Sequence record: MK295203
Strand: one strand, 5' to 3'
Length of the DNA: 64,000 nucleotides
Source: Escherichia phage vB_EcoM_005
Shown here piece after piece: positions 31,258 through 61,311 of the stretch; the stretch's first letter is position 1; each line of letters opens with the position of its first letter. Both the position numbers and the translations under genes were made by a program. The notes beneath the pieces were generated by a model. It worked only from the letters and a program-made list of their open reading frames with translations, did no database searches and was not told the DNA's origin.

Positions 31258-32232
31258 ATGCAAGATTTCGGACATTGGGCGGTATTTGAAGAAACCGATA
31301 TTAAAAACCATATTGGATTTGTATACGTAATCACTTTTGAAGATGGCAAAAAATATGTAGGTGCTAAAAAGATTTGGAAACGAATTAAAGCTGCACCTTG
31401 CACATTTAAACGCGGCCCTAAAAAAGGATTTGAAGAATCTGATTGGAAAACCTATACCTCATCATCTAATGAACTAAACGCAATGATAGAAAAGGGTATA
31501 AGTCCTAAAGAGTACCTTATTGTAGGATGGTATCCTACTTGGGGTAAAACTCTTATGGCAGAAATGGAAATGCAATTAGCCAATGATGTTTTACGAGACC
31601 CTATGTGGCTTAACAAGCAAATTGGCGGACATTTCAACCCTAACTGCTTTGACGATTTAACCGCTGACGAAGTTGGCAAGTATATTAAATCTGGGTGGCA
31701 ATTTGGTCGTTCTAAAACAGAAAAACATTCTGTTACCTATAATTGCTCTAAATTTACTATATGGGACTATCAAGAAAATAAAGCAGTGGAAGTTCTAAAT
31801 CAAAATGAGTTTGCTCGTAATAATGATTTAAGTAGCAACCATCTAACTAGACTACTTCAAGGAACTCTCGACCTTATTAAAGATCGCTGGGGACTTCCAC
31901 CAGATATTGCTCGTCAGCGTTATAAATTTCAGGACGTTTCTTCAGGAACAAAATTTTTATCTAATTCTGAGTTAGAAGAATTTTACGGTATGACTCGCGG
32001 TCAGGCTAACAAAGCCGTTAAAGATGGAAGAGCCGTTAAATTGGTAGTCGAAAGCAAAGAAGACCACATTAAAAAACTTGGCTCTATCGAATTGGTAAAA
32101 ACCGAAAAGACAAAAGTTACGTCTCAAGTAATGCTTAACAGTTTTAAAGATATAGTTAATCCTATGACCACTGCCGAAAAATCAGAAATGATTGAATGGT
32201 TGGAAAGTTATATAACTTATTTGAAATCTTAA
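31258..32232 (+). CDS. GIY-YIG homing endonuclease-like protein
   Basis: N-terminal GFVYVITFEDGKKYVGAKK (GIY...YIG pattern) with downstream conserved R/E/N; 324 aa. Confidence 0.6.
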   Translation: MQDFGHWAVFEETDIKNHIGFVYVITFEDGKKYVGAKKIWKRIKAAPCTFKRGPKKGFEESDWKTYTSSSNELNAMIEKGISPKEYLIVGWYPTWGKTLMAEMEMQLANDVLRDPMWLNKQIGGHFNPNCFDDLTADEVGKYIKSGWQFGRSKTEKHSVTYNCSKFTIWDYQENKAVEVLNQNEFARNNDLSSNHLTRLLQGTLDLIKDRWGLPPDIARQRYKFQDVSSGTKFLSNSELEEFYGMTRGQANKAVKDGRAVKLVVESKEDHIKKLGSIELVKTEKTKVTSQVMLNSFKDIVNPMTTAEKSEMIEWLESYITYLKS

Positions 32233-36735: not shown

Positions 36736-37491
36736 ATGAAATACATCACATACCTGACAATATATTCCGGGACTAAGCTTCCACCGTTTTATATAGGGTC
36801 TACCACTTTGGAGAAGCATTTAAAAGGATACCACGGGAGTGTCCTTTCTAAAGCATATAAAGAAATCTATAAAAATGAGCTTTTAGAGCACCCAGAATTA
36901 TTTGACTCATGTATTGTAAGTGAACACCCTACAAGAGAAGAGGCTTTAGAAGCTGAAAGAATGTACCAGTTAAGAACCGATGCGGCCCAAAATCCTCTAT
37001 TCTTTAATAGGGCTGTCGCAGCTCCTAAAGGATTCTTTGGGCTTTCGCTACCTAAAGAGCAACACCCTCTTTACGGCTCTCATAATGCTAAAGGGTATAT
37101 TCATTCCTATAATCCTGTTACATTGGAACAAACCTTTGCACCTACAGTCCCCGAAGGATATGTAGAAGGTCGTTCACCTAATTATAAAGCATCTAGTCAT
37201 AATAAGGGCAGGAAGTGGTATAACAATGGTGTTGACAAAGGATTATTTGTAGAAGGAAAACAACCCGAATCTTGGGTTCTTGGTGGTTTTCTAACCGATG
37301 AGCATAAGAAAAACTTGAAAAGAACTGATGGGATATATGACGGCAATTATCACAATTTAGTTTATAAAATTTTTAAGCCTACCGTTACAATTGTTAGACC
37401 TAAGAAAATCTGGGTTAATGACGGCATAAAAAGCTTTATGATTTCTGAGATAGAATTTAATAGTGAAATACATTATAAAGGTAGATTATGA
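36736..37491 (+). CDS. GIY-YIG (Seg-like) homing endonuclease
   Basis: N-terminal YITYLTIYSGTKLPPFYIGST (GIY...YIG), downstream conserved Glu/Asn; 251 aa; lies between 55 and 47 where T4 carries a-gt. Confidence 0.6.
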   Translation: MKYITYLTIYSGTKLPPFYIGSTTLEKHLKGYHGSVLSKAYKEIYKNELLEHPELFDSCIVSEHPTREEALEAERMYQLRTDAAQNPLFFNRAVAAPKGFFGLSLPKEQHPLYGSHNAKGYIHSYNPVTLEQTFAPTVPEGYVEGRSPNYKASSHNKGRKWYNNGVDKGLFVEGKQPESWVLGGFLTDEHKKNLKRTDGIYDGNYHNLVYKIFKPTVTIVRPKKIWVNDGIKSFMISEIEFNSEIHYKGRL

Positions 37492-40933: not shown

Positions 40934-41632
40934 ATGAAATTCTCTAAAGAAACTCTGAACATTCTGAAAAACTTCTCCGGTATTAACCCAGGTATCATGC
41001 TTAAACCTGGTAACACTATTCTAACTCGTTCAGTAACGGGTGCAAGTTATGGTGAAGCTACTGTAAATGACACCTTTGATATCGAAGCCGCAATTTATGA
41101 TTTGAACGGCTTCTTAAGTATTCTGTCATTGGTATCTGATAGTGCTGAAGTTTCGGTAAGTGAAGACCAAACCACTTTAATTATTAAAGACCAACGTTCA
41201 ACTATTAAGTGGCCTATTGCCGACCCAAGCACAATTGCATTCCCAAGCAAAGCTATTCCGTTCCCAGTGGCTGAAGTTATTTTTGACCTTAAAGCTGAAG
41301 ATTATCAACAGTTGATGCGGGTGTCCTCTGGACTGAGTATTGATACATTTGCTATTACTGTAGACAATGGTAAAATTGTAATCAATGGTTACAAACAAGT
41401 TGATGATAAGGACCTGGCACGCCCATTGTATTCCTTAGTGGTTGCAGACCATGATGGCCCTGAATTCAAATTCATTATTAACAAAACTAATATGAAAATG
41501 ATGCCGGCCGATTACCATGTTCTGTTATGGGCACGCGGTGAAGGTCAGGACGCTCGTTTCGCTGCTAAGTTTGAAGGTTCACAAGCTTCTTACGTATTAG
41601 CTATGGAAGCAGGCTCAAGCCACTCGTTCTAA
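40934..41632 (+). CDS. 45: sliding clamp gp45
   Basis: NFSGINPGIMLKPG..ILTRSV.G..YGEA...D..D.EAAIYDLNGFLSILSLV matches recalled T4 gp45; 232 aa. Confidence 0.95.
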   Translation: MKFSKETLNILKNFSGINPGIMLKPGNTILTRSVTGASYGEATVNDTFDIEAAIYDLNGFLSILSLVSDSAEVSVSEDQTTLIIKDQRSTIKWPIADPSTIAFPSKAIPFPVAEVIFDLKAEDYQQLMRVSSGLSIDTFAITVDNGKIVINGYKQVDDKDLARPLYSLVVADHDGPEFKFIINKTNMKMMPADYHVLLWARGEGQDARFAAKFEGSQASYVLAMEAGSSHSF

Positions 41633-42096
41633 TGTATATATGTTATCATAATACGATAACCAACACTAAAACCAAGTGTGTCTATCATTATTTTGGTAGA
41701 CACCGTGTTACTGCTGAAGAATACTACGGTACAGGTAAGTTTGTTAAGAAATGCAAACGAGAAAATGCTATTACTCCAGGTCTTTGGGAGTTTTGTGTTG
41801 AAGTTATCCATACAGTGGATACGTTTAAAGAAGCCAAGATTATTGAAGAAGAGCTTGTTAAAGAAGGCATATCAAAATATGGTATCCTTTGTGTTAATAA
41901 GAATCCTGGTGGTGATGGCGGTGTGGATTACCACACCGAAGAATCTAAACGTAAAATGTCAGAAACTAGAACAGGAAAATCAAGAATATTTTCCGAAAGT
42001 CATAAAGAAAATTTAAGTAAACGAGCCAGAAAATACTCTGATGTTTGGTCCGAACCTGTATATTCAAATCTTAAAACCATTTGGCTGGAAACAGGT
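41632..42096 (+). mobile_element. GIY-YIG endonuclease-like module, in-frame with downstream gene 44 (no stop codon)
   Basis: CVYHYFGRH...YYGTGKF (GIY/YIG), FCVEVIH..EAKIIEEELV, NKNPGG, then NUMOD3-like HTEESKRKMSETRTGKSR...SESHKENLSKRARKY; ATG overlaps gene 45 stop. Confidence 0.55.
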
Positions 42097-43068
42097 ATGT
42101 TATTAAATGGTTTAACTATTAATGAAAACGACTTCATGTGGGAACAGAAATATCGTCCAGGTACTTTATCTGAGTGTATTCTGCCTGCGCATGATAAAGA
42201 AACCCTCCAAGCCATTGTTAATAAGGGCCTAATCCCTAACATTATCCTAGTCTCTGCTTCACCAGGCACAGGTAAAACTACCGTAGCTAAAGCATTGTGT
42301 GCTGATACAAATTCAGATATGCTGTTTGTTAACGGTTCTGACTGCCGTATTGATTTCGTTCGTAACGAACTTACTCGTTTTGCATCTTCTAAATCTATCG
42401 AAGGTAAGCGTAAGGTAATTGTTATCGACGAATTCGACCGCGCTGGTGTTGCTGAAGCTCAACGTCACCTTCGTTCGTTCTTAGAAGCCTATTCCTCAAA
42501 CTGTTCTGTAATTATTACAGCAAACAATATTGATGGTATTATCGGTCCACTTCAATCCCGTTGTCGTGTTATTAAATTTGGTGAAGCCACTCCAGCCGAC
42601 CAAACATCCATGATGAAAGAAATGATTCATCGTGCTGTAGCAATCTGTAAAAACGAAAATATCGAAGTCGAAGACCTTAAAGTTATTGCCGCTTTAGTTA
42701 AACAAAACTTTCCTGACTTCCGTAAAACAGTTAACCAACTGGACCGTTACTCATCCAGTGGTAAAATCGATACAGGCATTTTGAGTATTGTAATGAATAC
42801 CAATTCGCCTATCGATGAAGTAGTGGCTGCACTTAAAGATAAAAACTTTAAAGAACTCCGTGCATTAGCTCCACGCCATGTCAATGACTATTCCAACTTT
42901 ATTATGTCACTGGCTAACGAACTCTATGGTAAATTGCCTGGACCAAGCATTGTTAGAATGTATGAAATTGTCGGTGAAAATAACCAATACCACGGTATTG
43001 CGGCTAACCCAGAAATTCACATGACTTATCTGTTCATCCAACTTGCTCTGGAGCTCCAATGGCTATAA
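42097..43068 (+). CDS. 44: clamp loader large subunit gp44 (coordinates from internal ATG)
   Basis: EQKYRPGTLSECILPAHDKET, Walker A SPGTGKTT, VIDEFDR, SRC motif QSRC; near-collinear with recalled T4 gp44. Confidence 0.9.
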   Translation: MLLNGLTINENDFMWEQKYRPGTLSECILPAHDKETLQAIVNKGLIPNIILVSASPGTGKTTVAKALCADTNSDMLFVNGSDCRIDFVRNELTRFASSKSIEGKRKVIVIDEFDRAGVAEAQRHLRSFLEAYSSNCSVIITANNIDGIIGPLQSRCRVIKFGEATPADQTSMMKEMIHRAVAICKNENIEVEDLKVIAALVKQNFPDFRKTVNQLDRYSSSGKIDTGILSIVMNTNSPIDEVVAALKDKNFKELRALAPRHVNDYSNFIMSLANELYGKLPGPSIVRMYEIVGENNQYHGIAANPEIHMTYLFIQLALELQWL

Positions 43069-46812: not shown

Positions 46813-46814
46813 GT

Positions 46815-46843
46815 GTTTACATACCACATGGAACGTGGTAGTA
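46815..46843 (+). promoter_or_regulatory. T4-type early promoter
   Basis: GTTTACataccacatggaacgtggTAGTATccttcctatcaa. Confidence 0.6.
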
Positions 46844-46875
46844 TCCTTCCTATCAACTACTTAGAGGAAATTACA

Positions 46876-47112
46876 ATGGAAGCTTTAATCGTTAGTGCTG
46901 GTGTTTTAGGATTCGGTTCTCTGGCTATTATGTTCATTGGTTACTTTTTACCATGGATTTTAGCTCTTCTGCGAGGCACTCGTAGTAATGTAGGAATTTT
47001 CTTCCTTAATCTCCTGTTAGGTTGGACGATGATTGGTTGGGTAGTGGCTTTAATCTGGGCTATCGCTGCTGAACGTAAATCAAATGCACAAATCATTATT
47101 GTTAAACAGTAA
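46876..47112 (+). CDS. imm: Imm-like small membrane protein (superinfection immunity family)
   Basis: 78 aa, two TM helices (LIVSAGVLGFGSLAIMFIGYFLPWILALL / GIFFLNLLLGWTMIGWVVALIWAI); directly after gene 43 as T4 imm. Confidence 0.55.
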   Translation: MEALIVSAGVLGFGSLAIMFIGYFLPWILALLRGTRSNVGIFFLNLLLGWTMIGWVVALIWAIAAERKSNAQIIIVKQ

Positions 47113-47121
47113 GGGAATCCA

Positions 47122-47622
47122 ATGAAAAAGTTAATTATCGCAATGAGTATGCTCCTATCAGGTTGCGCAGTCCAATATGGTGATGCAGTTTCGGCCGATG
47201 AAGTTGGTAAAGCTCGTATCGCAGCTGAACAGAAACAATTCGATGGCGAAATGAAATTCCGTGCAGGTTCAGGACTTGTGTATACCCGAGCTAATAATCA
47301 ATGTGGTAATAACTGTGCAAAATATGCTCAACATGAAATCGAATTCCAACGTGAACAAGAGTCCAAGCGTGAAGCGGTACTAGCCAAACACCAGGCAGAA
47401 ATGAAGCGCCAAGATGATTTGTATAAAAAGCAGAAATTGTATGCGATGTGCGTAAACCATATCAATCTACAGATTTCTATCCATGAGGCCCGTTATTACG
47501 AAATGCTCGAAACCGAGAGCTTTGATAAGGCCCGTGATTATAAGAAACAAATCAATAAGCTCAAGACCAAAGTGCCGGCAGCAATAGAACAGTGTATCGA
47601 AATCGGTAAAGATAAGATTTAA
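47122..47622 (+). CDS. lipoprotein, hypothetical
   Basis: signal peptide with lipobox LLSGC; coiled-coil rich mature part. Confidence 0.5.
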   Translation: MKKLIIAMSMLLSGCAVQYGDAVSADEVGKARIAAEQKQFDGEMKFRAGSGLVYTRANNQCGNNCAKYAQHEIEFQREQESKREAVLAKHQAEMKRQDDLYKKQKLYAMCVNHINLQISIHEARYYEMLETESFDKARDYKKQINKLKTKVPAAIEQCIEIGKDKI

Positions 47623-47682
47623 GCAGTATCAATTTATTAAAAATAGTGTATAATGTACCTACATTCACTTGAGGAACAGATA

Positions 47683-49356
47683 ATGAAAAAGGTTGTTATT
47701 TTAGGCGCAGGTCTTGGCTCACGGTTGTATCCAATTACTAACGAAATCCCGAAGGTATTGGTTAACTACAAACAACATACAGTACTAAAACATTTATATG
47801 ATTTGTATAGTAACCAATCAGATGAAATTATTCTGGTTATTCACAGCAAATTTAACGACCTCGTTAAAGGCTATATTAAATCCATTAACATGATTAATAG
47901 TGATAAGCCTAAATTCACTATTCGTAACGTAGATGTGGCCAATGGTTCAGCTCATGCTATCGATTGCATTGCTGAAGATATCATTGGCCATAACGTCCTG
48001 TTTAACTGGTGTGACATCATTCCTGAGGGTCATAAAGTTGAGTGGGATAACGACTACTGTTATACCTACGGGACTGACTGTCGTTTTACATTTGAAGAAC
48101 CGTACTTGCGTGAAATTGGTACTGGCGGTGGCGTGGTTGGTTTGTATCAGGTGGCTAATTGGACAGGTTTCGACCGTTCTAATTATGGTGAAGACCTTGC
48201 CGATAACCTAGATTCAATGGTCTATTTGACTGAACGTAAGCTAGACTTTGTAGTTGATGTCGGTGACAAATTGAAACTGGCTAAGGCCCATGAAGAATCC
48301 GAAATTAACCGTGAATTTAATAAATTAGAGTTCACTGAGAATCTGGCTATTAAAGTACCAACTAACGAATTAGGTAAAGAAATCCAATCTAAAGAAATCA
48401 ATTGGTATAATTCTATTGATTCTGAATTTGTTCCGAGCATTGTAGACTTTGCTCCAGGCGAATTCATTAAAATGGAACGTATCTTTGGTCGCACCATGGC
48501 AGATGCCTACCGGTTTATGTCTAAAGAAACTAAAGTCCTCATGGTTTATAAGGTCATTAGTGCATTACGTTCATTCGGTGGAACTATCGATAACCCATCT
48601 GATGAGCAATGGTATTCCGATGTTAAGAAAGAAGTATTGGACAAGGTCCTGATTCGTAATGCTTCTATTGCCGGATTGATTGAAGGCTTTGCTCCACAGG
48701 GTATTACCCATGTCAATGACTTTAAGGTAGGCGACCCTGAAAAACTTCTTCGTCATGCACTAGAAATTCTGTCTGAACATAAAGAACCGTACCAACTTAT
48801 TCATGGCGACCCGCACTACAGTAATATTATGTTGTCTGACGAAGGTGATATTAAAATCATCGACCCACGTGGTTATTTTGGTAATAGTTCTAAAGGCCCT
48901 GCGATTTATGATGAAGCTAAGGTGCTTTATTCTATCGATGGTTATGACAAATTTAACTCTGACCCTCTATGGGGTGGCTTAACCCGTAACGGAACTCGTG
49001 TATTCGTTGATATTGAAAAGGTCATGCCTTTAGACGATATTCCGATGTGTACATTTAAGCACAAGCTCTGGATTGCTGTTATCTGGATGGCATTGGCAGG
49101 TTACTTTAAAAATAACCCTCTGAAAGCTCTGGGTGCTTATTACAATGGGCTATATCAACTGAGCGTGCTGCTGAAGCGGCATCCTCGTAAGCGTAAGCTT
49201 ATCACAGGTGAATTTGTCGATGAAGTTCGTGACCCTATTACGGCTCAAATTATCACTCGTTGTCCTGATAAGTGGGTTTTGCTTGACCAAGAAACTGGTG
49301 TAAAATATAAACCTACAGGTTCTACTGAACTCCACAAACAATGGAAGAAAATTTAA
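47683..49356 (+). CDS. bifunctional sugar/alcohol-1-phosphate nucleotidyltransferase + kinase (LicC/LicA- or MurU/AmgK-like fusion)
   Basis: N-terminal VILGAGLGSRLYPITNEIPKVLV (nucleotidyltransferase G-x-G-x-R-L loop); C-terminal HGDPHYSNIML and IKIIDPRGYFG (protein-kinase-like HGD...N and IDxE/D motifs of choline/aminoglycoside-type kinases). Confidence 0.7.
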   Translation: MKKVVILGAGLGSRLYPITNEIPKVLVNYKQHTVLKHLYDLYSNQSDEIILVIHSKFNDLVKGYIKSINMINSDKPKFTIRNVDVANGSAHAIDCIAEDIIGHNVLFNWCDIIPEGHKVEWDNDYCYTYGTDCRFTFEEPYLREIGTGGGVVGLYQVANWTGFDRSNYGEDLADNLDSMVYLTERKLDFVVDVGDKLKLAKAHEESEINREFNKLEFTENLAIKVPTNELGKEIQSKEINWYNSIDSEFVPSIVDFAPGEFIKMERIFGRTMADAYRFMSKETKVLMVYKVISALRSFGGTIDNPSDEQWYSDVKKEVLDKVLIRNASIAGLIEGFAPQGITHVNDFKVGDPEKLLRHALEILSEHKEPYQLIHGDPHYSNIMLSDEGDIKIIDPRGYFGNSSKGPAIYDEAKVLYSIDGYDKFNSDPLWGGLTRNGTRVFVDIEKVMPLDDIPMCTFKHKLWIAVIWMALAGYFKNNPLKALGAYYNGLYQLSVLLKRHPRKRKLITGEFVDEVRDPITAQIITRCPDKWVLLDQETGVKYKPTGSTELHKQWKKI

Positions 49357-49739
49357 TGTCGCATCGAGTAGAAAATAAGCCCCATTTATGTTTTGACATC
49401 GATAATACAATCACGGTTTGGAACCATGACCGTGATTACGAAAACTTTAAACCGGACACCGAAATGGTGTCCATGATTAATAAGCTTTATGATGAAGGGT
49501 ACGAGATTACATTGTTCACTGCTCGTGGTATGACTTCATGTGGCCCTGGTCGAATCTTGGTTGAAGTAGTTCCTGCATTGGTTAAGAACCTTGAAAAGAT
49601 TGGATTGAAATATCATAATCTGCTTACACATAAGCCGAGTTATACTTTTATCATCGATGACCGAGCAATCCGTCCTGACCACTTTAAAGAAATGGTTCGT
49701 GAAGGAACTCTTGAAACCTATAAGGCATATCATCCATGA
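49356..49739 (+). CDS. HAD-superfamily phosphatase
   Basis: motif I FDIDNTIT (DxDxT), motif II TLFTARG; 127 aa; TAATG overlap with upstream gene. Confidence 0.6.
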   Translation: MSHRVENKPHLCFDIDNTITVWNHDRDYENFKPDTEMVSMINKLYDEGYEITLFTARGMTSCGPGRILVEVVPALVKNLEKIGLKYHNLLTHKPSYTFIIDDRAIRPDHFKEMVREGTLETYKAYHP

Positions 49740-50272
49740 AACCAAAAATCATTGTTATCGACGGCCCGGATAATTCCGGGAAGTCCACTTTAATTGAATC
49801 ACTTTTATCTGATAAGAAATATCGTCTTATTGATTTTCCTAAAAAGATTAACGGTAAATGCATTTCATTAGGGACCGATAATGACAAGGCTTTAGTCGAG
49901 ACGTTGTATAAGTTTTTAGACCCTAATTTTGTCTACATCTTAGACCGTGGGTATCCTAGTAATATTGTTTACTCGGGATTCCTTCGTGGTGAAATGGACC
50001 CTTATGTAGAACTGGAAGATTGGAAAGGGTTTAAATCTGAATTCAATATTATTGAGGTTATTTTAACCCGTAACCCATTAGATGAAGACTTCGAAGATGA
50101 CCTTATTAAATTAACCAAAGATGAGTTCAACCTAACTATCCGGCAGTATGAAACATGTTTTGAAAACGTGTTTAAAATCTTAAATCACGACGGCCATAAT
50201 AATTTGCTTAATGTTGATATGGTAGAATTAAAACGTCTGAATGAATATATTGAAAATAAGGTGAATAAATGA
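49736..50272 (+). CDS. P-loop kinase (thymidylate/deoxynucleoside kinase-like)
   Basis: Walker A IVIDGPDNSGKST, downstream DRGYPS; 178 aa. Confidence 0.55.
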   Translation: MKPKIIVIDGPDNSGKSTLIESLLSDKKYRLIDFPKKINGKCISLGTDNDKALVETLYKFLDPNFVYILDRGYPSNIVYSGFLRGEMDPYVELEDWKGFKSEFNIIEVILTRNPLDEDFEDDLIKLTKDEFNLTIRQYETCFENVFKILNHDGHNNLLNVDMVELKRLNEYIENKVNK

Positions 50273-50967
50273 AACACATTACCGCTGTTAGTTTTGAAAA
50301 CGCGTTTAAGCAAATGAACGAAGAAATCCTGGAAGCTCCACAGTTTGCAGTTGATTCTCGTATCGGCCGTTGTTATGAAATTGGTTCTGCTTCGGTAGAA
50401 GTACTGGATGCAAGCACCTATAAATTCACCGACCCTCGTATTAATCGTATCAACTATGATTATGCCGAATCTTTCTGGAAATTTATGATTTCTGGTGGTA
50501 CTGATGCCGCCGAAGCATTTAAGGAATACCCTAATGTTGCTAAGTTCATTGATAAGCCGAAAAGTGACGTATTGCCTGCAAACTTCAACACTTTCTATGG
50601 ACCTCGAATTGTGGCCCAACTCCCAGCCCTACTTAAAGAGCTTAAAGAAAAGCCTAACTCGAGACGAGTTGTGTTCCAAATTCTCCAAGAACAAGACCAA
50701 GCTCTCCTTGATTCTGACGAATCCTTAGAATATCCGTGTACCGATTCGGTAACATATTATATTCGTGATGGACGTCTGTATGCACACACTCATATGCGTT
50801 CACAGAACTGTGCTATCGTTATGCAGCTGGATTTCTATCTGCAGGGTAAACTGATGGCCTTTATTGCTGAACAGTGTGGTGTTGGTCTGGGTACGTATTC
50901 CCATACTATGGTTAGTGCACACGTGTTTGAACGTGATTTTGACTACGTTCGAGGATTCCTGAAATGA
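50269..50967 (+). CDS. 42: dCMP hydroxymethylase (gene 42; thymidylate-synthase fold)
   Basis: active-site region EYPCTDSVTYYIRDGRLYAHTHMRSQN aligns with recalled T4 gp42 MCTNTVQYLIRDKKINAVVNMRSND; Cys followed by Thr rather than TS-type PCH. Confidence 0.75.
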   Translation: MKHITAVSFENAFKQMNEEILEAPQFAVDSRIGRCYEIGSASVEVLDASTYKFTDPRINRINYDYAESFWKFMISGGTDAAEAFKEYPNVAKFIDKPKSDVLPANFNTFYGPRIVAQLPALLKELKEKPNSRRVVFQILQEQDQALLDSDESLEYPCTDSVTYYIRDGRLYAHTHMRSQNCAIVMQLDFYLQGKLMAFIAEQCGVGLGTYSHTMVSAHVFERDFDYVRGFLK

Positions 50968-51758
50968 GTCTGTTTATCGTTCCTATTTTCAGTATGCGTA
51001 GTTACGAAACAGGTGAATATGCCGTCCTTAAGGACGGTAATTTTCAACTCCATTTAAACCGTGCTCGCCCAGGTGATTATCTGGCTTATCCTAGAAATTC
51101 GAGCGATATCAAAGAATGTATTGAATTGTTTCCTGAACTGAATTTTGTGCCACTTTGGTATAAAGAAAATGCTTATGAAACTCGTAAACATTTTTGGTCT
51201 GAAAATGAGTTCGTCGTTGATTCATTAATTGAATACTATGACTGTTCAGGCTTAGTAACCGATATCACAGGTTATGATGGCACTCAGACTGTACAATTCA
51301 ACTTTAACATTACAATGGACCCTGAAGTTCCTCGTTATTATATCGATGAGTTTATTGATATCGACGTGTCTTCAGTTGAACGTTCGATTTATACTACAGT
51401 CCTGAATCAATGCCAGAAAGACGTCCTGGTGTCACGAGGTGCGTCCTCTGATAAGATTTTTGTAGACCAAAAGGTAATTAATCCCGCAGTAATTGAGCGT
51501 TACTCTGAAGGTCTAGCGCCTATTAAAATTGATGGTATTTTCCATCCATTCCGTATCTCAGATAAATGCTACCAATTCGAAAGAGTTGTAGACCAAGCTG
51601 CGGCCGTATATTATCAGATTCTGAAATCAAGACCTCATATCATTTATCATGAGAATCCTGGTTTAGTATTCCATCCTGGTCTGGCTGAATTCATTTATTT
51701 CGGTGCCCACATCCATTCTGAGCACGAAATGCCAAGTTATGAGGACGTAGTATGCTAG
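50964..51758 (+). CDS. hypothetical protein in the position of T4 beta-glucosyltransferase; candidate DNA sugar transferase
   Basis: 264 aa between gene 42 and uvsX; no similarity to recalled T4 b-gt; acidic DID motif. Confidence 0.4.
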   Translation: MSLFIVPIFSMRSYETGEYAVLKDGNFQLHLNRARPGDYLAYPRNSSDIKECIELFPELNFVPLWYKENAYETRKHFWSENEFVVDSLIEYYDCSGLVTDITGYDGTQTVQFNFNITMDPEVPRYYIDEFIDIDVSSVERSIYTTVLNQCQKDVLVSRGASSDKIFVDQKVINPAVIERYSEGLAPIKIDGIFHPFRISDKCYQFERVVDQAAAVYYQILKSRPHIIYHENPGLVFHPGLAEFIYFGAHIHSEHEMPSYEDVVC

Positions 51759-51883
51759 GTCCTTTATTGCTTTTTATAATTTTGTTATTATTCTCTTTCG
51801 GAGCCTTGTTATTATTATGCTGGCTCGAGAAACGAGAAGTCCGGAAGATAGTCGATAAGGCTATCAACCGAGGAATAAAATAA
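51752..51883 (+). CDS. small membrane protein, hypothetical
   Basis: 43-aa ORF MLGPLLLFIILLLFSFGALLLLCW... below track threshold. Confidence 0.3.
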   Translation: MLGPLLLFIILLLFSFGALLLLCWLEKREVRKIVDKAINRGIK

Positions 51884-51960: not shown

Positions 51961-53133
51961 ATGTCCGATTTAAAATCCCGTTTGATTAAAGCTTCTACTT
52001 CTAAAATGACTGCCGACCTGACCAAATCTAAATTGTTTAATGGTCGTGACGAAGTTCCTACTCGTATCCCTATGCTGAATATTGCATTAGGTGGTGCGTT
52101 GAATGCAGGCTTACAATCAGGTTTGACAATCTTTGCTGCTCCATCTAAACACTTTAAAACGTTGTTTGGACTTACCATGGTTGCGGCATATATGAAGAAA
52201 TATCCAGACGCAATTTGTTTGTTCTATGACTCTGAGTTCGGTGCTTCAGAATCTTATTTCCGTTCGATGGGTGTTGATTTGGAACGTGTGGTTCATACAC
52301 CAATCCAGTCGGTCGAACAGCTTAAAGTTGATATGACTAACCAGTTAGAAGAAATTACTCGTGGCGAAAAGGTTATTATCTTTATCGACTCCATTGGTAA
52401 TACTGCTTCTAAGAAAGAAACCGAAGATGCTTTGAACGAGAAAGTTGTAGGTGATATGACTCGTGCTAAGTCACTGAAATCTCTGTTCCGTATCGTAACA
52501 CCTTATCTGACCATCAAGGATATCCCTTGTGTAGCAATTAACCACACTGCTATGGAAATTGGTGGAATGTATCCTAAAGAGATTATGGGTGGCGGTACTG
52601 GTATTCTGTACTCTGCTTCTACCGTGTTCTTTATCTCTAAACGTCAGGTTAAAGATGGTACTGAGCTCACTGGTTATGACTTCACACTGAAGGCTGAGAA
52701 ATCTCGTACGGTTAAAGAGAAGTCAACGTTCCCTATCACCGTTAACTTCGAAGGTGGCATTGACCCGTTTAGTGGATTGCTTGAAATGGCTACTGATATC
52801 GGCTTTGTCGTGAAACCTAAAGCAGGTTGGTATAATCGTGCATTCCTTGACGAAACCACGGGTGAAATGGTTCAAGAAGAAAAAGCATGGCGTGCTAAAG
52901 CTACCGATTGTGTTGAGTTCTGGGGACCGCTGTTTAAACATGCTCCGTTCCGTGAAGCAATCGAGAATAAGTATAAGCTTGGTGCAATTAATTCTATTAA
53001 AGAAGTTGACGATGCAGTGAACGACCTTATTAACTCTCGTGTCTCTAAGAACGTTGCTGTTAAATTAGGTGGAAATACCCAAAGCGCCGCTGATATCGAA
53101 AACGATTTAGAAGAGATGGATTTAGATGACTGA
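51961..53133 (+). CDS. uvsX: recombinase UvsX (RecA-like)
   Basis: MSDLKSRLIKASTSKMTADLTKSKLFN...IPMLNIALGG; Walker A-like GLTIFAAPSKHFKT; 390 aa. Confidence 0.95.
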   Translation: MSDLKSRLIKASTSKMTADLTKSKLFNGRDEVPTRIPMLNIALGGALNAGLQSGLTIFAAPSKHFKTLFGLTMVAAYMKKYPDAICLFYDSEFGASESYFRSMGVDLERVVHTPIQSVEQLKVDMTNQLEEITRGEKVIIFIDSIGNTASKKETEDALNEKVVGDMTRAKSLKSLFRIVTPYLTIKDIPCVAINHTAMEIGGMYPKEIMGGGTGILYSASTVFFISKRQVKDGTELTGYDFTLKAEKSRTVKEKSTFPITVNFEGGIDPFSGLLEMATDIGFVVKPKAGWYNRAFLDETTGEMVQEEKAWRAKATDCVEFWGPLFKHAPFREAIENKYKLGAINSIKEVDDAVNDLINSRVSKNVAVKLGGNTQSAADIENDLEEMDLDD

Positions 53134-53455
53134 TTTATCTGATTTAGATAATTTCGTTAAAGATACCGAAGAGGGTCCTAGTGACCCTCGGTATTATGAG
53201 AAATCATTAGATATAATCCGTAAGTCAATGGGTTCTGTTAAGCAGGAAATTATGCTTACTTTACCCGATGGCACTGCTCACATCGTTTATGTGATGAATA
53301 TTGTTATTGAGAAAGATGGAAAAGTGTCGGTTGATTTCGGAACACCTTCCGAAGACCGAAAAGAAGAGCTAGCGCTTCATGTAGAAAAATGTGTTACAAT
53401 GCAAATACAAGAAGAACTGGATAAAATTAAATCTAAGAGGTGGTGGAAATGGTAG
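53126..53455 (+). CDS. 40: gp40-like head vertex assembly protein (synteny)
   Basis: 109-aa ORF between uvsX and 41. Confidence 0.5.
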   Translation: MTDLSDLDNFVKDTEEGPSDPRYYEKSLDIIRKSMGSVKQEIMLTLPDGTAHIVYVMNIVIEKDGKVSVDFGTPSEDRKEELALHVEKCVTMQIQEELDKIKSKRWWKW

Positions 53456-54881
53456 AAACTATTTTGGCTCAACTGCTAGGCAATAGTGATTATTTCACTA
53501 AGGTCTGGCCTTATATGAATGATTCTTATTTTGACCAGGGTCCTGCAAAGACCCTTTTCAAAGAAATTAAAAAACACGTCAATGAATATAATGCAGTGCC
53601 TTCTAAGAACGCATTGAGCATTGCATTAGATAACAGTACGCTTTCAGAAGTTGAACATCAGGGCGCTAAAGAGCTTTTAAGTTCACTGAATGCCGGACCT
53701 GAAGACCAAGAATGGTTGGTTAAAGAGACGGAGAAATACGTTCAGAAAGCAGCGATGTATAATGCAACTTCAAAAATCATTGAAATCCAAACTAATGCCG
53801 ACCTTCCGGTTGAGCAACAAAATAGAAAACTTCCAGGTATTGGTGCTATTCCTGGATATCATGCGTGATGCATTATCGATTTGTTTCGATTCTGAATTAG
53901 GTCATGACTGGATGGATGACTATGAAGAACGATTCAAAAGTTATTCCGATAAAGCACGTAAGGTTCCGTTCCGTCTTAATATTCTGAATAAGATTACCAA
54001 GGGTGGTGCCGAGTTTGGTTACTGAAAACGTATTGTTGGCAGGAACAAACGTAGGTAAGTCTCTTGGCCTGTGTTCATTGGCTGCTGATTACCTTCAATC
54101 AGGTTACGATGTTCTTTATATCTCCATGGAGATGGCAGAGGAAGTATGTGCTAAGCGTATAGATGCCAACCTTCTGGATGTATCGCTGGATGATATCGAT
54201 GATGGTCATGTCTCTTGGCCTGAATATAAAGCTAAGATGGATAAATGGCGTTCAACTGCTACCTTAGGTCGTTTAAAGATTAAACAGTATCCTACTGGTG
54301 GTGCTAATGCCGATACCTTCCGTGCATTATTAAACGAATACAAGCTCAAACAAAACTTTGTGCCGCAGGTCGTTATCGTCGACTACTTGGCCATTTGTGC
54401 ATCGTCTCGTACTAAAGTTTTCTCTGAAAACAGTTACGGATTGATTAAGATGGTAGCCGAAGAACTACGTGGACTGGCAGTAGAGAAGAAATTATTGTTG
54501 TGGACAGCAGCCCAGACTACTCGTGGTGCGAACGTTGCGGCCGAAATCGATATGGCTGATATTGCTGAATCATTTGGTATTGCACATACTGCAGACTTCA
54601 TGTTAGGTGTGGTCGAGACAGAAGAGTTTGCTCAGATGGGTATGCAAATGGTTAAGCAGCTTAAATCTCGTTACGGCGATAAGAGCTACTACAACAAATT
54701 TAAGATTGGCGTTAAGAAAGGAAACCAACGTTGGTATGAAGTTGAAGACGATTCCAACCCAGGCCCGGTGAACACTGTTCGTGAGGCTACAGGTGAGATG
54801 AATCGTCAAGCCGAGGTCAATCGTCAGACGCGTGTTAATAGAAGTGATTTAGACGATTTAGCAGCATCTATCAAATTTTAA
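53440..54881 (+). pseudogene. 41: replicative helicase gp41 (DnaB-like), split across three frames by two +1 shifts
   Basis: segments 53440-53868, 53870-54025 and 54003-54881 each align with consecutive parts of recalled T4 gp41 (..GAIP|DIMR.. and ..GGAE|TG.. junctions); Walker A GTNVGKS in third segment. Confidence 0.85.
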
Positions 54882-58817: not shown

Positions 58818-59471
58818 TTGATGCTGGCGAAAGGGTTCTATTCTGGGACAAGAGGAAAATTAAGAGGTTCTAAGCGGTCTTTATCATATTATACGGAAGA
58901 ACACCATGTTATACCTAGATGTATGAATGGTTCTGATGATAAAAACAATTTAGTTGCTTTATTGCCAAGAGAACACTTTGTAGCTCATAGGCTTTTAACA
59001 AAAATATATCCCGAAGTAAAAGGTCTACATTATGCTGTTAATTTAATGAGATATAATAAAGGAGTTAAATTAACTAGTAGAACTATAGCCACGTTAAGAG
59101 AAAATAACGCTAAAGCATTTTCAGGAAAAAATAACCCGATGTTTGGTAAACCTTCCTGGATTAGAGGGATGAAAACTCCTGAAGAAACTAAAGCCAAAAT
59201 GCGCCTGGCTCATAAAGATAAAATTATATCTGATGAAGCCAAGGCCAATATGAGTAAAGCTAGAAAAGGAAGATTTAGTGGTAAAGATTCCCCTAGATAT
59301 GGTTTGCCAAATCCTAGGCGTGGAGAAATATGGAATAGTTACGATATGCTTTATGAATTATGGGTTTACAATAATAAACCTAAACGCACCAAATTTAATA
59401 AAATAGCTGTTGATAATGGATATCCTGATATTTGTTATCGACGAATGATAGAAAACTTTAATAGGAAATAA
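58818..59471 (+). CDS. HNH homing endonuclease (Mob-like); 5' end uncertain
   Basis: HNH motif EEHHVIPRCMNGSDDKNNLVALLPREHFVAH; NUMOD-like repeats; track ORF start overlaps primase-derived sequence. Confidence 0.65.
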   Translation: MMLAKGFYSGTRGKLRGSKRSLSYYTEEHHVIPRCMNGSDDKNNLVALLPREHFVAHRLLTKIYPEVKGLHYAVNLMRYNKGVKLTSRTIATLRENNAKAFSGKNNPMFGKPSWIRGMKTPEETKAKMRLAHKDKIISDEAKANMSKARKGRFSGKDSPRYGLPNPRRGEIWNSYDMLYELWVYNNKPKRTKFNKIAVDNGYPDICYRRMIENFNRK

Positions 59472-59475
59472 TATA

Positions 59476-59613
59476 ATGGCATTTTTTAACGAATGTAGTG
59501 GTTTGATTTCTGGTGTTGATAAAGCTGAGGAAGCTTATTTTAATGCTCTGATTCACGAAGATAATTTATTTATTCGCTTTAATCTAACAGTTTATAATTA
59601 TCTAACTTATTAA
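59476..59613 (+). pseudogene. dCTPase (gene 56) N-terminal fragment
   Basis: MAFFNECSGLISGVDKAEEAYFNALIHED then unrelated tail; 54 nt identical to the start of the next copy. Confidence 0.6.
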
Positions 59614-59636
59614 TGAATTGAAAAAGGAAAAATATA

Positions 59637-60056
59637 ATGGCACACTTTAACGAATGCGCAAACCTGATTGCTGGTGTTGATAAAGCTGAGGAAGCTTATT
59701 TTAATGCTCTGATTCACGAAGATAAGGACCCTCTGCAGGTTATGTTGCGTGAACAGAAAGATTGTATTGACGATGAATTCCGTGAACTTCTGACTTCCCT
59801 CGGTGAAATGTCTAAAGGTGAGAAAGATGCATCTGCTGTATGGAAAAAATGGAAAGCCCGTTACCCGGAAGCACAAGCCAAACCTATTTCAGAAATGTCT
59901 CCTGAAGACCAGCTTGAAATTAAATTTGAACTCATTGATATTATGCACTTCGTATTCAATATGGCTATTGGCTTGAATATGTCGGCTGAAGAAATGTTTA
60001 AACTTTATTACCTGAAAAATAAACACAACTTTGAACGCCAGGACAATGGATATTAA
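59637..60056 (+). CDS. 56: dCTP pyrophosphatase gp56 copy A (MazG-like), apparently lacking a middle segment
   Basis: MAHFNECA..I.GVDKA...DPLQVML then REQKDCIDDEFRELLTSLGEMS.GEK.ASAVWKKWKARY...EMSPEDQLEIKFEL.D..HFV.NM..GL.M.AEE.FKLYYLKNK.NF.RQD.GY, matching recalled T4 gp56 ends. Confidence 0.75.
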   Translation: MAHFNECANLIAGVDKAEEAYFNALIHEDKDPLQVMLREQKDCIDDEFRELLTSLGEMSKGEKDASAVWKKWKARYPEAQAKPISEMSPEDQLEIKFELIDIMHFVFNMAIGLNMSAEEMFKLYYLKNKHNFERQDNGY

Positions 60057-60106
60057 TTTCAAATCCGTTCTTAAAGAAAAGTTCCCGCAATGGGAACTTT
60101 TAGAAG
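60008..60106 (+). repeat. 99-bp direct repeat, copy 1 (3' end of dCTPase copy A plus junction)
   Basis: identical to 60430-60528. Confidence 0.9.
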
Positions 60107-60480
60107 ATAAACCTGAATATAACCGTCATCCTGATGACTTGGCTACTGCAGGTGAAGTTGTTGATTGGTTGCGCAATCAGAAAGATTATATTGATGATGA
60201 ATTCCGCGAACTTCTGACTTCTCTTGGTGGCATGAGCAATGGCGAAAAAGATGCGAGCGCTGTATGGAAGCCTTGGAAAGCTCAACATGCTGAACGTCGT
60301 GAAACCCTGATTAACGATTTGTCTCCTGAAGACCAGCTCGAAATTAAATTCGAAATGATTGATATTCTGCACTTTGTTCTGAATATGTTCCAAGGTCTTG
60401 GACTGACTGCTGAAGAAATCTTTAAACTGTATTACCTGAAAAATAAACACAACTTTGAACGCCAGGACAATGGATATTAA
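60046..60480 (+). CDS. dCTP pyrophosphatase gp56 copy B (diverged paralog/allele), lacking the N-terminal segment
   Basis: YNRHPDDLATAGEVVDWLRNQKDYIDDEFRELLTSLG... ; ~75 percent nt identity to copy A body, identical 99-bp 3' end. Confidence 0.7.
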   Translation: MDINFKSVLKEKFPQWELLEDKPEYNRHPDDLATAGEVVDWLRNQKDYIDDEFRELLTSLGGMSNGEKDASAVWKPWKAQHAERRETLINDLSPEDQLEIKFEMIDILHFVLNMFQGLGLTAEEIFKLYYLKNKHNFERQDNGY

Positions 60481-60528
60481 TTTCAAATCCGTTCTTAAAG
60501 AAAAGTTCCCGCAATGGGAACTTTTAGA
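60430..60528 (+). repeat. 99-bp direct repeat, copy 2
   Basis: identical to 60008-60106; runs into the start of the HNH ORF. Confidence 0.9.
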
Positions 60529-61311
60529 GGTCATGATTACTTAAAAATTATAGATAAGTATAAACTAAACGTCCATACCAAATCTAAAACTGAAGCTCAT
60601 CATATACTTCCGAAGTGTGCATTTCCAGAATACAGCGATTTTAAAATCTCTCCTTGGAATAGGGTGTATCTTCCTATATACCAACACATATATGTTCATT
60701 ATCTTTTGTGCTCAACTAAGGTGTCGGGTTTGCTTAATGCATTCCAGAGAATGACACTAACAAATAGTGCCCAGTTTAAGAAGCTTTCTGATTTAGAGAA
60801 AGACCTTACTATTAAGTTATGGGCCGATAAACGTGGGGAGTGGATAGAGCAAGACATTCTCCGTAAAAGAAAATCCTTTATGTATTCTAATTTTGATTTC
60901 TGGTATAATGACTGGATTTCGCGGGATATGCCTCGCTATCGAAGATATTGGGGAGTTTTGGTTGAAGAAAATAATCCGGAAGTTTTAGGTACCCACAAAA
61001 ATAGTTTATTGACAGTGGTAAAAGATTTTTGTTTGAGATACGCAGAAGAACATAATTTATCTGAAGAAGAAGTTTTGAGTCTTCAAAAATTAAAACAGTC
61101 TTCAGAAAAAGCTTTAAAAGATAAAGGAAAAACTTTAAGTAAAACTGCTAGAGGCAATCAACTCAAATGGAATTATGAAACTGAGCTTAGGAATTTATGG
61201 ATTGCTAATAACAAACCAAAATATGTGAATTTCAGAAAGCTAGTGGTTAGCTTAGGCTACCCGGATGAAAATTATATAAACATGATAAAGAGGTTTGAAA
61301 ATGGGTTCTGA
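60514..61311 (+). CDS. HNH homing endonuclease (Mob-like)
   Basis: HNH motif EAHHILPKC...NRVYLPIYQHIYVHY; C-terminal module similar to the 58818 endonuclease; ATG lies inside the 99-bp repeat. Confidence 0.65.
   Translation: MGTFRGHDYLKIIDKYKLNVHTKSKTEAHHILPKCAFPEYSDFKISPWNRVYLPIYQHIYVHYLLCSTKVSGLLNAFQRMTLTNSAQFKKLSDLEKDLTIKLWADKRGEWIEQDILRKRKSFMYSNFDFWYNDWISRDMPRYRRYWGVLVEENNPEVLGTHKNSLLTVVKDFCLRYAEEHNLSEEEVLSLQKLKQSSEKALKDKGKTLSKTARGNQLKWNYETELRNLWIANNKPKYVNFRKLVVSLGYPDENYINMIKRFENGF

Follow-up and report, generated by a model that had tools for sequence, protein, structure and literature searches.

Between imm and uvsX, Escherichia phage vB_EcoM_005 (sequence record MK295203) carries five co-oriented genes in the genomic neighbourhood that holds the glucosylation genes of T4, which raises the question of which base and which sugar they would serve. 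The window, the 64,000-nt stretch of DNA that was analysed, is a Dhakavirus sequence with about 96% nucleotide identity to phage IME08. ORF analysis of the window found the five overlapping ORFs (47683-51758) to be real, with successive overlaps of 16, 4, 4 and 4 nt. The cluster and its flanks comprise:

46813-47112: Imm_superinfect gene, upstream flank (PF14373, E 1e-17)
47122-47622: lipoprotein-like ORF, 166 aa, after imm
47683-49356, + strand: fusion gene, predicted bifunctional sugar-activating enzyme of the AfhE / RB69 ORF53_52c type
49341-49739, + strand: HAD-family phosphatase gene, AfhF / RB69 gp51 type
49736-50272, + strand: Tmk-like kinase gene, RB69 gp45 / DLP3 gp78 type
50269-50967, + strand: predicted 5-hydroxy-dCMP synthase gene (ThyA superfamily), RB69 gp48 / HY126 type
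50964-51758, + strand: GT-B-fold transferase gene, orthologue of "arabinosyltransferase 1", RB69 gp46:47 and DLP3 gp79
51752-51883: hydrophobic ORF, 43 aa, before uvsX
51961-53133: uvsX, downstream flank

Gene content between imm and uvsX

The first-pass annotation had placed the five genes tightly between imm and uvsX. They do lie in that interval, but the 166-aa and 43-aa ORFs intervene and the fit is not flush. Domain searches of the cluster proteins, which it had proposed, upheld its assignments (NTP_transferase with APH, HAD-like, P-loop/Tmk-like and ThyA family). By tblastn, all five genes have RB69 orthologues at 37-79% identity, and RefSeq notes relate them to RB69 orf052c, 051c, 045c, 048c and 047c. 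RB69-type arabinosylation was the correct lead; the accompanying statement that the enzyme set was inferred rather than recognised is outdated, the orthologues having been described in RB69 in 2018, with IME08 gp43 named (PMC6024577). As the first-pass annotation had claimed, no homologue of T4 a-gt or b-gt was detected by tblastn anywhere in the window; where T4 has a-gt, the window carries an HNH homing endonuclease ORF (36736-37491). The proposal of a cytosine hypermodification module in place of T4 glucosylation is supported.

The cluster is therefore real but already described, a stripped-down Dhakavirus version of the RB69-type set. The cytosine arabinosylation cluster of RB69 and HY126 was published between 2018 and 2026, Lee et al. 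2026 already named Dhakaviruses as carriers, and a syntenic cluster occurs in several genera, Dhakaviruses among them (PMC13326640). The HY126 enzymes were characterised biochemically by He et al. 2026, as related in PMC13326640. The region probably encodes an arabinosyl-5-hydroxycytosine pathway in its Dhakavirus form. What was observed is gene content, fold, orthology and the diagnostic residues; all enzymatic activities, the identity and number of the sugars, and whether the first transfer occurs on DNA are inferred. No nucleoside or chemical analysis of any Dhakavirus DNA was found in the literature.

The predicted modified base and its precursors

The 232-aa product of 50269-50967 belongs to the ThyA family by domain search and its gene occupies the position of T4 gene 42. 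The first-pass annotation had called it the dCMP hydroxymethylase "42" and had the phage keep the hmC pathway. A gp42-type enzyme would then make hydroxymethyl-dCMP, and the cluster would decorate the hmC of the DNA with a non-glucose sugar, arabinose or another, in keeping with the arabinosyl-hmC reported in the 2018 RB69 paper. This reading is highly improbable, as it is already contradicted by the sequence. The protein is 78-79% identical to RB69 gp48, compared with 26% to T4 gp42 and 18% to E. coli ThyA, and matches PDB entries 9iqu/9iqc/9ir2 with E 1.5e-125 versus 4.7e-6 for T4 gp42 (1b49). Its identity to the solved flavin-dependent 5-hydroxy-dCMP synthase is ~79%, and the aligned 9iqu sequence is almost identical to that of RB69 gp48. 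Where E. coli ThyA has Asp169, the motif MRSQN supplies the diagnostic Asn; the protein retains the catalytic Cys as well as Asp at the N177 position. Of nine further homologues tested, all produced 5hodC, as this D169N signature had predicted (PMC13326640). The 2018 linkage assignment is moreover wrong according to two 2026 papers, in which the sugar is joined to 5-hydroxycytosine through an ether bond (PMC13326640, PMC13390438). The "42" label was rejected, and the protein is predicted to be a 5-hydroxy-dCMP synthase orthologue; the acceptor would therefore be 5-hydroxycytosine.

The other two genes named with "42", gene 1 and gene 56, are present in sequence outside the cluster:

1968-2729, + strand: gene 1 dNMP kinase (Pfam DNMK PF21448, E 7.8e-90; 98% to IME08 gp1)
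59461-60480, + strand: gene 56 dCTPase region, which would supply dCMP (tblastn with IME08 gp56; Pfam)

The gene 56 region is mosaic or duplicated in the window. Searching with IME08 gp56 by tblastn recovered an N-terminal fragment (59461-59565), a copy with 61% identity and a 34-aa gap (59631-60053) and a C-terminal copy with 80% identity (60076-60477), and both ORFs of the region match Pfam dUTPase_2. The 178-aa product of 49736-50272 is a predicted P-loop, thymidylate-kinase-like nucleotide kinase (PHROG 761 thymidylate kinase, E 1.4e-39; 37% identity to RB69p045), carries a Walker A motif GPDNSGKST and a DRGYPSN motif, and has YorR (2axp) as a weak PDB match.

In the nucleotide branch, dCMP from gp56 would be hydroxylated at C5 by the ThyA-family enzyme in a flavin- and O2-dependent reaction. 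The gene 1 product is expected to convert 5hodCMP to 5hodCDP, RB69 gp1 being active on 5hodCMP (PMC13326640). With the possible participation of the Tmk-like kinase, and then of host NDP kinase, 5hodCTP would form and be incorporated by the phage polymerase instead of dCTP.

Proposed sugar activation and transfer

The 557-aa fusion protein joins an NTP_transferase domain (residues 3-100, E 2.4e-8) and an APH domain (residues 346-417, E 9.6e-6) in one chain, both Pfam matches lying above the gathering score, and PHROG 4098 covers it at full length. The start at 47683 was favoured because GAGGA lies 8 nt upstream and because the earlier ATG, at 47653, shares bases with a TATAAT hexamer. A length of 557 aa is also what gene callers assign on eight public contigs. 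The protein is colinear with RB69p053 (44%) and RB69p052 (41%) by tblastn and conserves the motifs ILGAGLxxRLYPIT, IPKVLVNY, NWCDxIP, IHGDPxxSN and IDPRGYFG, so that both domains retain catalytic motifs. The N-terminal domain is a predicted sugar-1-phosphate nucleotidyltransferase and the C-terminal domain a predicted APH/choline-kinase-like sugar kinase. The 132-aa product of the next gene is HAD-like (phmmer against PDB: 9iqw, E 3.9e-55; 1xpj, E 2.7e-12), is 63% identical to RB69p051 and has its DxDxT motif as CFDIDNTIT; it is predicted to convert arabinofuranose-1,5-bisphosphate to arabinofuranose-1-phosphate.

A role for these two proteins in the cell envelope (decoration of the LicC or MurU type, or capsule synthesis) rather than in DNA modification has next to no likelihood. 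Among characterised sequences, the N-terminal domain is indeed closest to heptose, choline and MurNAc nucleotidyltransferases, and the phosphatase resembles the capsule biosynthesis phosphatase family (NCBIfam TIGR01689, E 1.6e-14, below the family cutoff). Translational coupling, however, links both genes to those of the cytosine hydroxylase and the transferase, and arabinosylated DNA has been chemically demonstrated in phages with syntenic clusters.

The earlier inference of an activated non-glucose sugar, made by kinase, phosphatase and nucleotidyltransferase activities, was right in its logic, and the order of the steps is now known: the kinase acts on arabinose-5-phosphate, the HAD enzyme follows, and UDP-arabinofuranose is then made. 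Within the window, tblastn detected no homologue of RB69p003, RB69p055 or the U32-family protein. Because the phage isomerase is absent, the pathway would draw on arabinose-5-phosphate of host origin (KdsD/GutQ). The C-terminal kinase would phosphorylate it at C1 to the 1,5-bisphosphate, the HAD phosphatase would remove the 5-phosphate, and the N-terminal nucleotidyltransferase would produce UDP-arabinofuranose.

The fusion protein is nevertheless only 42-46% identical to its counterparts in all phages with proven arabinosylation. Identities are bimodal: at least 72% inside its own clade, which takes in Dhakavirus, Marfavirus (80%) and Proteus phages (72%), against 42-46% outside it. Given this separate clade and the absence of the isomerase from the Dhakavirus and Marfavirus clusters, the sugar could differ: another pentose phosphate (ribose, xylose) or another nucleotide carrier would give a new glycoform of the same 5-hydroxycytosine, and a Thanatos protein is reported to act in vitro on xylose-1-phosphate. 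Such a glycoform is unlikely. Identity to the RB69 enzymes is much higher for the phosphatase (63%) and the transferase (about 65-69%), which argues for the same sugar, and catalytic motifs are conserved in both fusion domains. For Kdo synthesis, E. coli and Klebsiella form arabinose-5-phosphate themselves, which renders a phage isomerase dispensable.

The last ORF had been proposed as the transferase. Its product is 69% identical to RB69p047 and 48% to RB69p046 (tblastn), and structure-based searching, also proposed earlier, supports the assignment: an AlphaFold model of an intact orthologue (pLDDT 95.6) has UDP-sugar GT-B enzymes as top Foldseek matches (including 3c4q, 6kih and 9v0l), of which 3c4q and 6kih coincide with those published for RB69 gp46:47. 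When intact, the protein is thus predicted to be a GT-B-fold glycosyltransferase. The length of 264 aa is anomalous, as the 99 homologues found range from 241 to 381 aa and the closest has 297 aa. Near 51602-51607 the window copy lacks 99 nt in frame, which costs the protein roughly residues 215-247, with the near-invariant TDPN motif and K246 among them; these 33 residues span two strands predicted for the C-terminal Rossmann domain. A true inactivation in this genome, leaving bare 5-hydroxycytosine in virion DNA, would fit these losses but is very unlikely. Scattered over the window are at least 17 more gaps specific to it, 99 nt long except for a few near 100-112 nt; one of them falls within the essential DNA polymerase gene, and the deletion is therefore most likely a sequence artefact. 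Two +1 frameshifts are present in gene 41 as well, and a comparison of IME08 with Bp7 shows no such gaps in either. In each of the eight public contigs that encode the identical ThyA-like protein, the transferase has 297 aa, the polymerase 903 aa and gp41 476 aa.

The single GT-B transferase (297 aa when intact) would place arabinose on the 5-hydroxyl, and because a second transferase is absent, mono-arabinosylated 5-hydroxycytosine is expected. In the phage collection, homologues of RB69p003 are limited to Mosigvirus, Acinetobacter phages and one Tegunavirus. The literature found reports no in vitro activity of transferase 1, and individual transferases are inactive on 5hoC DNA. Mono-arabinosylated Thanatos, with its single transferase, serves as a model for transferase 1 (PMC13326640).

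Relation to known systems

The clusters of RB69 and HY126 (Mosigvirus; RB69 gp45-gp55 plus gp3; HY126 Afh genes) occupy the same slot, from the DNA polymerase gene to uvsX. Shared with the window are the synthase (79%), HAD phosphatase (63%), transferase 1 (about 65-69%), fusion enzyme (41-44%) and Tmk-like kinase (37%), the D169N signature and the partner genes 56 and 1. Relative to RB69, the window lacks the isomerase (gp55), the U32-family protein (gp50), gp49 and the second arabinosyltransferase (gp3). The Tmk-like gene precedes the synthase gene in the window, whereas in RB69/HY126 it follows the transferase gene; the fusion enzymes fall in different clades, and the predicted product is mono-arabinosylated rather than mono- plus di-arabinosylated.

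Klebsiella phage Marfa (Marfavirus) has the gene order of the window (polymerase, fusion, HAD, Tmk-like, synthase, transferase, uvsX), an 80% identical fusion protein and, likewise, no phage isomerase beside the polymerase gene. Its Tmk-like and synthase genes are, however, separated by one of the U32 family, and imm and the lipoprotein ORF are missing upstream. Shewanella phage Thanatos, likened by descriptions, has a pentose-cytosine cluster in which TH1_060 (561 aa) is the fusion protein, TH1_062 the ThyA homologue and TH1_063 (300 aa) the single GT-like protein, although its host and phage lineage are distant from those of the window.

T4 glucosylation (gp42, a-gt, b-gt) follows the same logic of a dCTPase, a ThyA-family enzyme acting on dCMP, the gp1 kinase and a GT-B transferase, although a-gt and b-gt have no sequence-level homologue in the window. 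T4 makes hmC with a folate cofactor and uses host UDP-glucose, whereas the window is predicted to make 5hoC with flavin and O2 and to use phage-made UDP-arabinofuranose.

Layout and identity of the five-gene cluster

The window comes from a Dhakavirus, a genus of T4-like phages. Nucleotide comparison with the phage collection gave IME08 as the best match to the region 47600-51800 (96% identity over the full length), with about 50 other records, among them Bp7, JS98, JS10, QL01 and WG01, at 94-97%. The gene order of the IME08 RefSeq record is DNA polymerase, imm, a hypothetical ORF, five RB69-like genes, uvsX, 40 and 41, and the five are noted there as similar to RB69 orf052c, 051c, 045c, 048c and 047c, in that order. 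In the window, neighbouring ORFs of the cluster overlap by 4-16 nt each.

Open reading frames of the cluster (coordinates, strand, description)
47683-49356, +, fusion protein with NTP_transferase and APH-type kinase domains
49341-49739, +, 132-aa HAD protein with a DxDxT motif
49736-50272, +, 178-aa P-loop thymidylate-kinase-like (Tmk-like) protein, PHROG 761
50269-50967, +, 232-aa ThyA-family protein, PF00303
50964-51758, +, transferase (264 aa in the window), PHROG 3891

The start at 47683 chosen for the fusion protein in the first-pass annotation is the better one, with GAGGA 8 nt upstream; the earlier ATG, at 47653, coincides in part with a TATAAT hexamer. Gene callers place the protein at 557 aa on eight public contigs. 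Predicted promoters and terminators between 46.7 and 52.1 kb were no more numerous than in shuffled sequence.

Two further ORFs border the cluster. The first, between imm and the fusion gene (47122-47622, 166 aa), opens with MKKLIIAMSMLLSGC, which has the character of a lipoprotein signal and includes a lipobox. Dhakaviruses share this ORF, whose match is PHROG 1754, a family of unknown function; its product may act together with Imm in superinfection exclusion. The second, of 43 codons (51752-51883) and identical in IME08, runs across the transferase stop codon before uvsX; its peptide product is strongly hydrophobic (MLGPLLLFIILLLFSFGALLLLCWLEKRE...).

This system has been described before, with Dhakaviruses named among its carriers. 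RB69 DNA contains arabinose, the base then being called arabinosyl-hmC, and the polymerase-uvsX module was named as the likely UDP-arabinose pathway (Thomas et al. 2018, PMC6024577); the gene set was later followed through Tevenvirinae in a 2021 survey. In the corrected structure the sugar sits directly on C5, via an ether oxygen derived from 5-hydroxycytosine, and the hydroxylated nucleotide is produced by a ThyA homologue that uses O2 and a flavin cofactor (Lee et al. 2026, PMC13326640; the Durham collection paper, PMC13390438). Dhakaviruses are among eleven further groups with a syntenic cluster (Lee et al. 2026, PMC13326640). The literature search turned up no chemically analysed Dhakavirus DNA. 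In the RefSeq annotations of IME08, Bp7 and Marfa, the cluster genes carry the labels 'thymidylate synthase', 'phosphoheptose isomerase', 'thymidylate kinase' and 'hypothetical'. The HAD phosphatase is misnamed 'phosphoheptose isomerase', the 5-hydroxy-dCMP synthase is misnamed 'thymidylate synthase' or 'hypothetical', and in one GenBank record the transferase is called 'RNA polymerase binding protein'. These present names are misleading and the cluster annotation is open to correction.

Predicted 5-hydroxy-dCMP synthase and sugar-activating enzymes

The 232-aa protein is a ThyA-family member, with a PF00303 match above cutoff (E 4.8e-14). A four-way alignment was made of this protein, RB69 gp48, T4 gp42 and E. 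coli ThyA. The catalytic Cys (ThyA C146) is invariant among the four. At the position of ThyA Asp169, the window protein and RB69 gp48 both carry Asn (MRSQN), where T4 gp42 (MRSND) and ThyA (QRSCD) have Asp. This replacement has been proposed as diagnostic of 5-hydroxy-dCMP synthases and was validated on nine further homologues (Lee et al. 2026, PMC13326640). The best solved relatives, PDB 9iqu, 9iqc and 9ir2, match residues 1-231 with E 1.5e-125, and T4 dCMP hydroxymethylase (1b49) scores only E 4.7e-6. Identity is 78-79% to RB69 gp48 and 26% to T4 gp42. Judged by its sequence, the protein is of the ThyA-family 5-hydroxy-dCMP synthase type, predicted to hydroxylate dCMP with flavin and O2; that it is a gp42-type dCMP hydroxymethylase is contradicted by the 26% identity, the weak 1b49 score and the Asn in place of Asp.

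Both Pfam domains of the fusion protein, NTP_transferase (residues 3-100) and an APH-type kinase (346-417), score above threshold. It is colinear with RB69 ORF053c and ORF052c, at 44% and 41% identity (tblastn), which represent one gene split by a sequencing error, IME08 gp43 being a full-length homologue (Thomas et al. 2018, PMC6024577). Nucleotide-binding motifs (ILGAGLxxRLYPIT, IPKVLVNY) and kinase motifs (IHGDPxxSN, IDPRGYFG) are kept in comparison with Marfa, a Bragavirus and RB69, and a PDB search returned no closely related solved structure. The protein is thereby assigned to the AfhE type (RB69 ORF53_52c, DLP3 gp82), a predicted arabinose-5-phosphate kinase/UDP-arabinose pyrophosphorylase. 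The 132-aa protein, with its HAD motif in CFDIDNTIT, matches PDB 9iqw (E 3.9e-55), is 63% identical to RB69 gp51 (RB69p051) and is a putative AfhF-type HAD phosphatase (RB69 gp51, DLP3 gp81). As relayed in PMC13326640, AfhE of phage HY126 converts arabinofuranose-5-phosphate to the 1,5-bisphosphate and later forms UDP-arabinofuranose, with AfhF removing the 5-phosphate between the two AfhE steps (He et al. 2026).

The first-pass annotation had read the five genes as a cytosine hypermodification module that builds an activated sugar and transfers it to hmC made by a '42' dCMP hydroxymethylase. The module and its pathway logic are largely borne out. The base is wrong, the D169N replacement and the RB69 gp48 orthology indicating 5-hydroxycytosine, and the enzymes it had called unrecognised are orthologues of published RB69 and HY126 enzymes.

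The putative transferase and irregularities of the window sequence

The last ORF is 69% and 48% identical to RB69p047 and RB69p046, respectively (tblastn), matches PHROG 3891 (E 1.8e-136) and is the orthologue of RB69 gp46:47 (DLP3 gp79), DNA arabinosyltransferase 1, one gene that a sequencing error splits in RB69 (PMC13326640). Searches of PDB (phmmer), Pfam and NCBIfam returned nothing for this protein, so the predicted fold alone was informative. The structure search that the first-pass annotation had proposed was run on P0001, an intact 297-aa orthologue 98% identical to the window protein over shared residues. Its AlphaFold model (pLDDT 95.6, pTM 0.90) led Foldseek to GT4 enzymes and UDP-GlcNAc 2-epimerases with probability 1.00, including MshA (3c4q) and sucrose-phosphate synthase (6kih), which are also the reported matches of RB69 gp46:47 (PMC13326640). 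The intact transferase is thus modelled as a GT-B fold of two Rossmann domains, like UDP-sugar enzymes. Arabinofuranose transfer to 5-hydroxycytosine by transferase 1 is still treated as a hypothesis in PMC13326640.

Homologues of the transferase (99 found) span 241-381 aa, the closest having 297 aa. Relative to these, the window gene is missing 99 nt near 51602-51607, which removes residues ~215-247. Two predicted strands are lost with them, as are the near-invariant TDPN motif and K246, leaving the window protein without an intact C-terminal domain. Loss of these 33 residues would probably abolish activity. In each of the eight public contigs with an identical ThyA-like protein, the transferase has 297 aa, the polymerase 903 aa and gp41 476 aa; exact look-up of the 264-aa form found no database record. 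A natural loss-of-function variant was considered for this deletion and rejected, given that gaps of the same size occur throughout the window. The deletion is probably an artefact of the window sequence, because about 17 sites show equal-sized net gaps against IME08.

Net 99-nt gaps relative to IME08 (approximate window positions)
Before ~29.5 kb, compared with IME08 only: 13142, 19927, 22138, 23752, 23869, 24613, 27012, 28545
From ~29.5 kb, also seen against Bp7: 29880, 30452, 32919, 39397, 39875, 44016, 46586, 51601, 62809

Such gaps do not occur between IME08 and Bp7 when these are compared with each other, and one of those in the window costs the DNA polymerase, an essential protein, 33 residues close to its C-terminus. 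The scattered gaps are probably an assembly or data artefact. All are multiples of three and are therefore invisible to ORF scanning; such systematic dropouts alter the apparent lengths of many window ORFs and can mislead their reading. Gene 41 (53440-54881) carries two single-base insertions relative to IME08, at 53854 and 54019, which split the replicative helicase into three overlapping ORFs of 142, 111 and 292 aa, where relatives have one 476-aa gene.

Other irregularities were observed outside the cluster. A 112-nt gap relative to Bp7 at ~42101, within a 478-aa ORF (41632-43068), seems to have joined the clamp-loader gene 44 to a hypothetical ORF that precedes it, and Gp44 domains cover residues 200-476 only. 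The gene 56 (dCTPase) region (59461-60480), flanked by two homing-endonuclease-like ORFs, is mosaic: besides an N-terminal fragment it contains one copy of 139 aa, which is 61% identical to IME08 gp56 and has a 34-aa gap, and a further, C-terminal copy at 80% identity. The arrangement suggests either duplication driven by a homing endonuclease or a chimeric assembly.

Homing-endonuclease-like ORFs
31258-32232, SegE-type GIY-YIG
36736-37491, PHROG HNH/homing endonuclease, in the slot of a-gt and mobB in T4
58818-59471, Pfam NUMOD3 with a sub-threshold HNH match, flanking gene 56
60514-61311, PHROG homing endonuclease, flanking gene 56

A reduced gene set and the proposed pathway

The absence of the T4 glucosyltransferases, as first read, held on searching: the best tblastn matches to a-gt and b-gt in the window spanned 20-36 residues, at E 0.028 and E 5.2, and no larger window ORF contains a glycosyltransferase Pfam domain. 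A hidden glucosyltransferase in the a-gt slot was rejected, the ORF there (36736-37491) being an HNH homing endonuclease.

The window does not hold the full Mosigvirus-type cluster. No homologue of the isomerase gp55, the U32-family gp50, the second arabinosyltransferase gp3 or gp49 of RB69 was found in it by tblastn. Homologues of gp3 in the phage collection are confined to Mosigvirus, Acinetobacter phages and one Tegunavirus, and the organism counts of gp55 homologues are too small to include the ~50 Dhakavirus or 25 Klebsiella records; at the RB69 gp3 position, the IME08 record shows nothing but an unannotated gap of 580 nt. These distributions indicate that Dhakaviruses lack gp3 and gp55 homologues. 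Marfa has the gene order of the window plus a U32 gene, and likewise has no isomerase. In a Bragavirus whose fusion protein is 46% identical, an additional ORF adjoins the polymerase gene; the annotation relates this ORF to a Mosigvirus protein, and it may encode the arabinose-5-phosphate isomerase.

The 'peptidase' gene of the RB69 cluster (gp50; 5493-6662 of L002, the RB69 sequence) and Marfa cluster (8787-9947 of L008, the Marfa sequence) is a Pfam Peptidase_U32 member (E ~1e-11), present in both and absent from Dhakaviruses. The characterised bacterial U32 proteins TrhP, RlhA and UbiU/UbiV take part in hydroxylations that need no O2, among them the one that yields 5-hydroxycytidine in rRNA. 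By analogy, the phage protein might provide an anaerobic route to 5-hydroxycytosine; no link between U32 proteins and arabinosyl phages was found in the literature. The five-gene Dhakavirus set represents a natural minimal version of the pathway and suggests that isomerase, U32 protein and second transferase are accessory.

Identity to the fusion protein is bimodal: Dhakavirus homologues reach at least 95%, those of Marfavirus 80% and those of Proteus phages 72%; all others, among them every phage with proven arabinosylation, stand at 42-46%. The Dhakavirus protein lies in a separate, divergent clade, with no accompanying phage isomerase. On the simplest reading of the cluster, Dhakaviruses draw arabinose-5-phosphate from the Kdo pathway of the host and attach a single arabinose; a different sugar is less likely. 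As the modification determines which restriction, CRISPR and glycosylase defences are escaped or triggered, the expectation of arabinosylated 5-hydroxycytosine in Dhakaviruses, rather than hmC derivatives, bears on phage therapy choice, sequencing, cloning and defence-system assays.

The 178-aa thymidylate-kinase-like protein (PHROG 761, E 1.4e-39) is 37% identical to RB69 gp45. Its gene occurs together with those of the hydroxylase and first transferase in every cluster examined (RB69, DLP3, RL38J1, Marfa, the Bragavirus and the window), and is present although gp1 is also encoded. The kinase could conceivably phosphorylate a glycosylated mononucleotide, in which case 5hodCMP would receive its first sugar ahead of replication and arabinosyl-5hodCTP would be what the polymerase incorporates, but we consider this unlikely. 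The experiments of PMC13326640 cannot, by its own account, separate a pre- from a post-replicative route, and transferase activity on 5hoC DNA was not seen there. Pre-replicative sugar addition, if true, would set these phages apart from T4, in which glucosylation is post-replicative.
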